From NCBI GenBank assembly GCA_012178725.1, contig GCA_012178725.1_3030.1: a stretch of 64,000 nt of DNA. One strand, 5' to 3'. Shown here in pieces: positions 31,767 through 34,823 of this stretch. The notes beneath the pieces were generated by a model. The model saw nothing but the letters and a program-made list of their open reading frames with translations, was not told the origin of the DNA and did no database searches. Within the stretch, counting starts at the first letter, position 1, and each line of letters opens with the position of its first letter. The position numbers were made by a program, and so were the translations under genes. Source of the DNA: a phage.

Positions 31767-32237
31767 CTAGCGATAAAAACCAAAGTGACGATTAGCTTCA
31801 ACAATCTTTCTTTCTTCTTCAGACATTCTCCAGCGTAGTCCAACATCAAAATGAGCCCAGACCATCCTAACAAATGCATTTATATCTTTAATATCTTCAA
31901 TAATGAATGTTTTACTTTTAAAAGGTTGACTCGCTAATTTAACTTTATCGTCTTCAAACATGTCAAAAAGACCATATTCATGAGCTCTTTTATAGCCTTT
32001 AATAGTTAAAGCTTCAGAAGAAGAAAATGGTGAATCTGTATTCTGCAAAATATCTTCAGTATGCTTTATAATTAGAATAACATTTTCTGGATATTTTCTT
32101 TCTTTTATATCTTTAATTAAAATATCCGGATTTTCTGCTAAAGGAATAATTAACGAGCATTTTTTATCAAGTGTATTTACTGATTTACCTTCTTTAGACA
32201 TAAATTCTATTGAATAATGTTTTGCTACTTCAATCAT
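31767..32237 (-). CDS. Hypothetical protein (156 aa), mrh region
   Basis: ORF in operon orientation. Confidence 0.55.
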
Positions 32238-32594: not shown

Positions 32595-33063
32595 TTATTT
32601 TACCTAAAACAATAGTAGGAGCATCGTCAAATTTATGAATTTTTAGCAAATTTGGATTTAACTTATTCCATAAAGAGGTAATAAAATATGATAGCGCACT
32701 TTCGTCCGTAATTATAAATTTATTTCCTTTATCTATTTTCCAATCATATATTGAATCATATGAATAGAAGGATAACGGTTTATTATAATATGCTTCACTA
32801 ACATCAATATAGTTAGATTTAGTAAATGCTTGAATTGCCATAAATGGAGAATTTTGTACAGTTTCAATAATTCCGATCTTTTTAAGTTTTATTTCAACAT
32901 CTTCTGGAATTGGCATTGAAATAAAATCTTCTACTAGATACATATTATTGTCATATCTTTTATCAATCATTACTGCTACGGTAATTGGAACATCCTTAAC
33001 AAACGCCATACTAATACTATTGATAGACATTTCAAACAAAATTGCTTCCATAATTTTCCTCAA
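32569..33063 (-). CDS. Hypothetical protein (164 aa), mrh position
   Basis: Size and position similar to T4 mrh; not verified. Confidence 0.55.
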
Positions 33064-33401
33064 TCACAAGATGTAGATGAACAACTAGAATCACAAGAAC
33101 TTCCACATGAATCGCCCGCCCATACATGAATAGGAACATTAGTATCATATGAATCAGAACTAGACTGTGTTTTCTGTGTGTTAGATGATGTAGTAGGTAC
33201 TGACCAGCGCCAAGGATTTTTATAATATTCTTGGGCTTCTTCATAAGTCATAGTAACTGCTTCTACTGTTCCATCTCCCATATAAACATACTCAACTACA
33301 GTTAAAGGAAGATAGTCATTTGAAATAGGAACTACACCTTCTCCCGGAGTTGTAGAGAAAAAATCTGTAAAGAAATTTTTAAACCAATTAAAGATAAACA
33401 T
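33060..33401 (-). CDS. Hypothetical protein (113 aa) with Cys/Ser-rich C-terminal tail
   Basis: C-terminus [20 protein letters not shown]. Confidence 0.55.
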
Positions 33402-33607
33402 TACAAAAAGCCTCTTTTGAATTCGACTTGCTTCTTACCATAATCATACCGAATCTCTGCATTAAATTCGACAGAACCATCTGCGTACATCATAAATGAA
33501 TGCACAACAACTTCTGTAGACCATGGCTGTAGTTCATATTTCTTCATTACATGCCGTGAAATGATAATATCTAAATCTTCATTTGGTTTAATCCAACGAT
33601 TTAACAT
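33401..33607 (-). CDS. Hypothetical protein (68 aa)
   Basis: First gene after an early promoter. Confidence 0.5.
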   Translation of the reverse strand: MLNRWIKPNEDLDIIISRHVMKKYELQPWSTEVVVHSFMMYADGSVEFNAEIRYDYGKKQVEFKRGFL

Positions 33608-33633: not shown

Positions 33634-33663
33634 ATTATACCATACTCATTTTGGAAAGTAAAC
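33634..33663 (-). promoter_or_regulatory. Early promoter (GTTTAC-N18-TATAAT)
   Basis: Reverse strand reads GTTTACtttccaaaatgagtatggTATAAT. Confidence 0.6.
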
Positions 33664-33698
33664 CATTTAAATGAAAAAAGGACTCCCGAAGGAGTCCT
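33664..33698 (-). terminator. Intrinsic terminator after soc
   Basis: aggactcc-UUCG-ggagtcct then TTTTTTCATTT on the - strand. Confidence 0.65.
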
Positions 33699-33703
33699 TA
33701 AAT

Positions 33704-33949
33704 TTATTCACCAGTTACTTTCCACAAATCTTCATTTGCAGCAATCCATTCAGTACGTTGATTTTCTTCATATACTGTAGAATATGCTGCTTTTTCTGAA
33801 GGGAATGTCTGGTAATGTGCACCAGAAATTTTGTGAACGTCAGAATAAAGAGGGAAAGCTACAGAAATTTCCTTTCCTTCAATTTTCTTATTTCCATCTA
33901 ATTTCTGCTCAAATGTTTTGATATTAACATAACCGCGAGTACTAGCCAT
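33704..33949 (-). CDS. soc: Small outer capsid protein Soc
   Basis: 81-aa ORF MASTRGYVNIKTFEQKLDGNKK..., matches T4 Soc. Confidence 0.93.
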   Translation of the reverse strand: MASTRGYVNIKTFEQKLDGNKKIEGKEISVAFPLYSDVHKISGAHYQTFPSEKAAYSTVYEENQRTEWIAANEDLWKVTGE

Positions 33950-34622: not shown

Positions 34623-34823
34623 ATGGTACAAAAATTAATGGCACTTGTTAATGCCATAAAAGGTAATAAAAAACGTATAGCTTTTACTATTTCTGCTATG
34701 GTAGGAATTTTACTCTGGAACTTTATTCTATCACCTGTTGCAATTGCACATGGTATTAATATTCCAGTAGTTACTCTTGATACATTTGTAGATTTAGCAT
34801 TTGCTTTAGTTGGGTTGATTTAA
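34623..34823 (+). CDS. Small membrane protein (66 aa), divergent orientation
   Basis: AAGGAGG ribosome-binding site 5 nt before ATG; two hydrophobic segments; stop overlaps the gene 61 stop (TTAA). Confidence 0.55.
   Translation: MVQKLMALVNAIKGNKKRIAFTISAMVGILLWNFILSPVAIAHGINIPVVTLDTFVDLAFALVGLI

Follow-up and report, generated by a model that had tools for sequence, protein, structure and literature searches.

Which role could be served by a small phage protein that ends in an array of serine, cysteine and aspartate residues, and is such an ending a real element of the protein at all? The question is raised by an open reading frame (ORF) in a stretch of phage DNA of 64,000 nucleotides, referred to here as the window. 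According to the ORF listing, the coding sequence occupies 33060..33401 of the minus strand, begins with ATG, ends with TGA and encodes 113 aa. An earlier note, made from the letters of the window, had pointed to its hydrophobic N-terminus and to its unusual C-terminus, suggesting that the latter could bind metal or be lipidated. Here, we analyzed the identity, conservation, predicted structure and genomic neighborhood of the protein and weighed the roles that its tail may have.

Identity of the gene and its family

The ORF is identified by sequence comparison as the ortholog of phage T4 mrh.1. The two proteins differ by four residue changes (N9S, V67T, K77N and I90V), and T4 Mrh.1 (UniProt P20706, PF23836, phrog_2031) has the same length, the same position in the order soc-mrh.2-mrh.1-mrh and the same tail. 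Annotated records of T4 and of phage NR1 carry a ‘Mrh.1 hypothetical protein’ at this position, and the window region is 95–98.5% identical to many Tequatrovirus genomes, NR1 being the top match. The window protein matches the Pfam family DUF7206 (PF23836) over residues 3–113 with 102.9 bits (E = 1.8e-29; the curated gathering cutoff of the family is 25.6 bits) and phrog_2031 with E = 1.8e-32. Furthermore, it contains three DUF7206 signatures that are conserved in the family alignments, namely, W-[LF]-K-x-[LF]-F at the N-terminus, Y-x-Y-M-G-D-G and, at the C-terminus, S-C-D. Gene and family alike have existing catalogue entries, as T4 mrh.1, DUF7206 and phrog_2031. The earlier remark that no T4 function is known for the protein agrees with these records, since the T4 entry reads ‘hypothetical protein’ and both DUF7206 and phrog_2031 are without an assigned function. 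A full-text literature search for ‘mrh.1’ returned no paper discussing the gene, which is named in supplementary tables only, and ‘DUF7206’ gave no relevant main-text match. The literature searched likewise held no mention of a terminal Cys-Asp motif or of modular termini in Mrh.1.

Searches of Pfam, PHROG, phmmer, PDB-profile and NCBIfam type did not reveal a homolog of known function. Thus, phmmer against 1.84 billion representatives returned family members only, hmmscan against Pfam at E ≤ 1 returned DUF7206 only, no match below E = 1.2 came from a profile search of PDB sequences, and NCBIfam gave no match. Two profile searches of a database of 5.8 billion proteins recovered DUF7206 proteins and a few low-complexity look-alikes, none of which was fused to a domain of known function. 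One distant look-alike is encoded by Klebsiella phage KP13-16 (OP617741; L021 4001-4375), a member of Stephanstirmvirinae; it has the N-terminal MIKKFFTWFKSLFK motif and a tail ending in ...SGSCDSSSSSSCD, and it has no EYVYMGDG core. Its gene lies among small ORFs in a cluster resembling tellurite-resistance loci, with a BFD-like ferredoxin, TerC, vWA-TerF, two TerD and TelA. The link to the Ter cluster was judged weak, because the sister phage FBKp34 (L029) has the same cluster without the look-alike gene.

A conserved Ser/Cys/Asp tail

The tail spans residues 94–113 (33063..33122, minus strand) and terminates in a free Cys-Asp carboxy-terminus. Seventeen of the last 20 residues are Ser, Cys, Asp or Gly, including four Cys (residues 99, 103, 107 and 112, separated by 3, 3 and 4 residues), and there is no other Cys in the protein. 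The unusual Cys/Ser-rich array is present as it had been quoted: among the 321 window ORFs of at least 40 aa, this is the sole one with at least 12 Ser, Cys, Asp or Gly in its last 20 residues. A frame error, raised beforehand as one way to explain it away, was rejected, as the same frame and tail are found in T4, T2, RB14 and other Tequatrovirus genomes. An alternative-frame ORF of 70 aa (33032-33244, minus strand) overlaps the 3′ half of mrh.1 and shows no sign of being a real gene; a frameshifted relative (P0006) runs into the same frame.

Close relatives retain the tail, both in the 90%-identity cluster P0001 (515 member sequences) and in the 502 phage records found by tblastn with the window protein. 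The same type of search with an RB69-type member yielded 806 records from T4-like phages of many Enterobacterales genera, and distant relatives, ∼25–50% identical outside the tail, were gathered from IMG/VR and with two profile searches. The hosts of these relatives are Escherichia, Shigella, Salmonella, Klebsiella, Enterobacter, Citrobacter, Serratia, Kosakonia, Edwardsiella, Cronobacter and Yersinia. All 116 full-length representatives end in C-[DN] (CD in 114, SCD in 105), and 115 of them match C-x(5-9)-C-[DN] at the extreme C-terminus. Exactly two Cys are located in the last 25 residues of 111 of the 116 representatives, 107 have no Cys elsewhere, and the last two Cys are separated by 4–10 residues, most often 6 or 8. 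The neighbors of these Cys are equally constrained, the preceding residue being Ser in 223 out of 240 cases and the following one Asp in 219 out of 240. When further distant members are included, 130 of 135 family representatives still end in CD, two in Cys-Asn and three otherwise, which disposes of the objection that the tail might not be conserved. P0137 (L024 4001-4591; 196 aa) is the only family member seen without Cys; its end, ...YDSGSYDSGSSSFD, has Phe-Asp in place of Cys-Asp.

Comparison of tail codons in 13 Tequatrovirus and five Mosigvirus/Dhakavirus sequences revealed that the variable codons are either synonymous (TGT/TGC, TCN/AGY, GAT/GAC) or exchange Ser, Gly, Ala and Thr for one another. 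The tail is also kept in proteins rearranged elsewhere: that of Escherichia phage 235Ecol030PP (P0003) retains it despite an insertion of 51 aa, and P0140–P0142 have lost the central core and keep the N-terminal helix motif together with the tail. This pattern of substitutions indicates purifying selection on the tail at the protein level, and comparison of the sequences points to the two termini, not the core, as the parts kept in the most distant relatives. Frameshifted or truncated copies of mrh.1 are rare (P0005, P0006 and L006). Their existence, together with the fact that mrh.1 is not essential, could be taken in favor of a functionless low-complexity extension or a frame-error artefact. 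We give such an explanation next to no credence, since genera with only 25–50% identity elsewhere in the protein still have the terminal motif in common, tail changes are only synonymous or conservative, and the motif outlasts insertions and replacement of the core. On these grounds, we regard the tail as a selected functional element, a product of neither frame error nor drift.

Two of the variant copies deserve a separate description. The P0003 protein (L020 856-1350) is a Tequatrovirus Mrh.1 of 164 aa with an in-frame insertion and an intact four-Cys tail; the insert matches the middle of RB69-type homologs (EEIIRQPEKAGNVG...LNSKKLKEHLD), and the protein looks like a recombinant between genera. 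The mrh.1 ortholog of Escherichia phage Sa45lw (P0004; L018 656-988) begins with GTG, and the deposited annotation begins at an internal ATG and covers 70 aa, so that the truncation of this record results from a mis-annotated start.

Modular architecture

An AlphaFold model of the window protein, built from an alignment of 117 sequences, contains a helix at residues 4–15, strands at 34–40 and 46–52, a second helix at 53–61 and disorder from residue 62 to the end. The β-hairpin with the short helix that follows (residues 34–61; 33219..33302, minus strand) is the sole confidently folded part, with pLDDT of 76–86. The family signature at residues 37–49, with its near-invariant EYVYMGDG, sits on this hairpin; G44 is invariant, and at least 90% of sequences share E37, Y40, G42, D43, E47 and V49. 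Toward the N-terminus, the hairpin is preceded by a Pro/Gly linker, PGEGVVPI (residues 19–26; 33324..33347, minus strand), in which P19 is nearly invariant. On its other side follows a Ser/Thr-rich linker (residues 62–93; 33123..33218, minus strand), predicted to be disordered (pLDDT <50) and variable in both length and sequence; other genera have a basic helix and a hydrophobic patch in its place. The tail itself is predicted to be disordered as well, again with pLDDT below 50, which answers the earlier call for a disorder check. The model of an RB69-type homolog has a helix at residues 3–9, the hairpin and the disordered tail, and its variable middle shows two further helices of low confidence; the mean pLDDT is ∼59 in both models. 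Taken together, the models depict a modular family consisting of an amphipathic N-terminal helix, a β-hairpin core carrying EYVYMGDG and a disordered Ser-rich tail.

The N-terminal element (residues 1–16; 33354..33401, minus strand) is predicted to form an aromatic amphipathic helix, putatively binding a membrane or a partner. Its motif reads W-F-K-N-F-F in T4 and M-I-x-W-L-K-N-L-F in the family consensus, K8 and F15 being conserved in at least 90% of sequences, and N5, K8, N9, T12, D13 and S16 make up the polar face. The hydrophobic moment of the helix is ∼0.6, and the family median is 0.62 compared to a mean of 0.41 and a 95th percentile of 0.645 in shuffled sequences. N-terminal amphipathicity is thus only moderately above the shuffled controls, which is suggestive and not decisive. 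Neither a transmembrane segment nor a signal peptide was detected in Mrh.1, the maximal Kyte-Doolittle mean over 19 residues being 0.84. The description of the N-terminus as hydrophobic therefore stands insofar as the helix is aromatic and amphipathic, and fails if a membrane-spanning or signal segment was meant.

A parallel may be drawn to terminal amphipathic anchors of the MinD/MreB/MinE type, above all the membrane-targeting sequence of MinD, KKGFL[K/Q]RLFGG (KKGFLQRLFGG was confirmed in a PDB entry). Like the predicted helix of Mrh.1, this sequence is short and terminal, with an aromatic/Leu face and Lys flanks. Its F-L-K/Q-R-L-F resembles the W-L-K-N-L-F of the Mrh.1 consensus. However, the MinD element is C-terminal and that of Mrh.1 is N-terminal, the two are not homologous, and Mrh.1 has no ATPase domain. 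The N-terminus of Mrh.1 is better read as a putative peripheral helix that may bind either a membrane or a partner.

Genomic context and expression

On the minus strand, the genes follow the order primase 61, dCTPase 56, soc, a terminator, mrh.2, mrh.1, mrh, srh and modA.4. The order 56-soc-mrh.2-mrh.1-mrh-srh is common to the window, T4, NR1 and the IMG/VR loci. The intrinsic terminator after soc (33678..33699, minus strand), with a 9-pair stem followed by a T-run, corresponds to an annotated terminator in phage NR1 and sets the late transcript of soc apart from the early unit mrh.2-mrh.1-mrh. The top promoter match in the region is a site of the form (G)TTTACT - 17 nt - TG-n-TATAAT (33634..33662, minus strand), with a 10/12 match and an extended −10 that reads TGgTATAAT in the window. 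It resembles T4 early promoters and is predicted to drive mrh.2-mrh.1-mrh. The segF homing endonuclease gene, found between soc and 56 in T4, is absent from the window, where soc (33704-33949) is followed by 56 from ∼34033. Between 56 and 61 there is an ORF of 66 aa with a hydrophobic stretch (34623-34823, plus strand), on the opposite strand to all its neighbors, annotated in phage NR1 as a hypothetical protein (RB51-like).

Directly upstream of mrh.1 lies mrh.2 (33401..33607, minus strand; 68 aa), a phrog_1873 member that has no match in Pfam and is syntenic across genera. The stop codon of mrh.2 and the start codon of mrh.1 overlap in TAATG (33399-33403), and the same overlap occurs in related loci, which makes translational coupling of the two genes likely. 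A Shine-Dalgarno sequence for mrh.1, AAGAGG, can be read within the 3′ end of mrh.2 (33411..33416, minus strand), 9 nt upstream of the start. On the other side, the ATG of mrh is located 8 nt past the mrh.1 stop codon. Edwardsiella phage PEi20 has a divergent mrh.2 copy upstream of its mrh.1 homolog, and RB69- and JS98-like loci keep mrh.2 beside mrh.1, while mrh is missing there. If Mrh.1 has a stable functional partner, Mrh.2 is thus the more likely one. In the T4 record, mrh and srh are annotated as σ32 modulators. An ortholog of modA.3 (31767-32237, minus strand; 156 aa) is encoded on the strand of mrh, ∼330 bases past its 3′ end. Since modA.3 and Mrh share phrog_1234 in the supplementary table of a CRISPRi-ART study (PMC11879866), modA.3 is likely a paralog of Mrh.

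The supplement of a T4 transcriptomic and proteomic study assigns mrh.1 RNA to the ‘early’ class and lists the Mrh.1 protein as not detected (PMC9697503). The early RNA class, the ‘hypothetical protein’ annotation and the lack of a signal peptide or transmembrane segment lead to the prediction that Mrh.1 is a small cytoplasmic protein and not part of the virion. In the supplementary data of the genome-wide CRISPRi-ART knock-down screen, only five T4 genes of “purely unknown function” fall into the ‘Semi-Fit’ category. One of them is mrh.1, with a score of 0.79 (p 0.069), and mrh.2 and mrh are both Not Fit (PMC11879866).

The proteomic result bears on the proposal that the tail is covalently modified, either as a RiPP-like core (with a Cys-Asp thioether, Ser-Cys lanthionine or azoles) or by lipidation of its Cys. 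The missing detection could be counted in its favor, and the Ser/Cys/Gly/Asp composition of the tail does resemble that of RiPP cores. The precursor of SapB terminates in TCN, and in ranthipeptides Cys is joined to Asp. However, the absence of Mrh.1 from the proteome has a trivial explanation and is uninformative: the only tryptic sites of T4 Mrh.1 are K8, K61 and R64, giving fragments of 8, 53, 3 and 49 residues, almost none of which suits mass spectrometry. Furthermore, no maturase-like gene resides beside mrh.1, and the idea of a RiPP precursor was dropped, as the neighbors are soc, mrh.2, mrh (T4_MRH), srh and modA.x, with no LanM/LanKC, YcaO or radical SAM gene nearby. Lipidation, one of the two roles first proposed for the tail, is unlikely, because the protein has neither a signal peptide nor an N-terminal lipobox, [LVI][ASTVI][GAS]C, its Cys being confined to residues 99–112 at the C-terminus of a protein with a predicted cytoplasmic location, and we know of no bacterial pathway for C-terminal S-acylation. 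Covalent modification of either kind is thus very improbable.

What the tail may bind

The tail is composed of tandem Ser-Ser-[Tyr/Cys]-Asp-Ser-Gly-like units. Three dyads are present in 91 of 135 family representatives, typically as Y-D, C-D and C-D-COOH, and T4-type Mrh.1 has Cys where other genera carry Tyr, which brings its Cys to four. Such a doubled number of Cys would fit cysteine as the working residue. We favor, tentatively and with considerable doubt, a reading in which Mrh.1 would be a flexible thiolate/carboxylate arm, tethered to a membrane or a partner, with a metal ion or a metal site of the host as its ligand. According to this scheme, the N-terminal helix would anchor Mrh.1 either at the inner membrane on its cytoplasmic side, as in MinD, or in a hydrophobic groove on a partner, and the flexible tail, with its two Cys-Asp dyads (four Cys in the T4 type) and terminal carboxylate, would serve as the chelating arm. 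The tail might bind a Zn, Fe or Cu ion or, alternatively, occupy the metal centre of an Enterobacterales host enzyme, and the effect on phage growth would be modest.

Metal binding by the tail, which the earlier note had raised, is plausible from the arrangement of its residues. At least two conserved thiols are within reach of each other on a tail predicted to be disordered (two Cys in 111 of the 116 representatives, four in the T4 type). A chelating arm is favored because conserved Cys are located in a disordered cytoplasmic tail, are paired with Asp and, in the last pair, are locked to the free carboxy-terminus. Where Cys are conserved in a disordered segment of a cytoplasmic protein, they usually act as metal ligands or redox centres. 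In sensors of the MerR family, metals are bound by C-x7-8-C loops, and a thiol combined with a carboxylate is the classic zinc-binding pharmacophore. Relevant comparators are the C-x7-8-C loop of MerR/CueR, the C-terminal tail of SlyD and thiol/carboxylate chelators of the metallothionein or phytochelatin type. Like Mrh.1, in which the Cys-Cys distance is mostly 6–8, these have 2–4 thiols and neighboring carboxylates in a flexible segment near the C-terminus. By contrast, the Mrh.1 tail is Ser-rich, not Gly/Lys-rich, has no homology to the comparators and contains neither His nor a canonical CxxC or CxC, the neighbors of its Cys being Ser and Asp. This non-canonical spacing counts against chelation, as does the Phe-Asp end of P0137, and the arm is further weakened by the weak fitness effect and by the frameshifted copies P0006 and L006.

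Tyr and Cys are partly interchangeable, occurring at equivalent places of the repeat units, an observation that a short linear docking motif would fit as well as chelation does. Here, no metal would be involved: the [Tyr/Cys]-Asp dyads and the free carboxylate would bind a pocket in a host or phage protein, which could be Mrh.2, Mrh or a membrane protein, or the tail could be the decoy substrate of a Ser-, Tyr- or Cys-modifying enzyme. The F-D end of P0137 suits such a motif, and the strict position at the extreme C-terminus suggests that the terminal carboxylate is recognized. Moreover, mrh.1 remains syntenic with mrh.2 in different genera, where the stop/start overlap persists, and restriction of the family to Enterobacterales phages suggests a host-specific target. 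On the other hand, the last two dyads contain Cys in ∼96% of representatives, though Tyr is only one transition away, and linear motifs that bind in a purely non-covalent manner seldom have cysteine as their key residue. We consider docking, the chief rival of the chelating arm, rather unlikely.

The distance between the two terminal Cys, 4–10 residues on a flexible C-terminal tail, would also be compatible with a redox-active dithiol that cycles between dithiol and disulfide, exchanges with thioredoxin or glutaredoxin, or scavenges oxidants or electrophiles early in infection. The C-terminal Cys pair of the class I ribonucleotide reductase R1 may be likened to the terminal Cys of Mrh.1 in this respect. 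Both Tyr and Cys are redox-active, and T4 encodes its own thioredoxin/glutaredoxin and ribonucleotide reductase. Nevertheless, the variable spacing and the invariant flanking Ser and Asp are unlike known redox pairs, and there are no nrd genes in the mrh.1 neighborhood; a redox role appears improbable.

Somewhat more speculative is a specific form of the metal-binding arm, in which Mrh.1 proteins would be small phage effectors of a new class, acting at the inner membrane. Their helix, resembling a membrane-targeting sequence, would bring a Ser-Cys-Asp-COOH ‘warhead’ into a host metal centre, with FtsH as a candidate, or the phage would hijack a metal pool; we regard this as a long shot. The proposed warhead would be a peptide analogue of metalloprotease inhibitors of the thiol/carboxylate type, and FtsH as the target would link Mrh.1 to the neighboring σ32-related mrh and srh. 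Phage lambda CIII inhibits FtsH, a membrane Zn-protease, and thereby stabilizes σ32. Like Mrh.1, for which such a helix is predicted, it is a small early phage protein with an amphipathic helix. However, CIII has no Cys-Asp tail, and Mrh.1 has no sequence similarity to CIII (hmmscan detected DUF7206 only). Manipulation of σ32 stability by other T4-like phages is a subject of PMC3486835, and CIII is treated in PMC1838920. The analogy rests on the location of mrh.1 in a cluster annotated as σ32-related and is weakened by the absence of mrh beside mrh.1 in RB69- and JS98-like loci. An interaction between Mrh.1 and FtsH is pure conjecture, drawn from this analogy.

About half of T4 genes are still without a function. 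If the tail of Mrh.1 is an effector of a metal site or a metal pool, it would represent a novel means of host takeover by phages; if it is not, mrh.1 would be another gene for a small accessory early protein.
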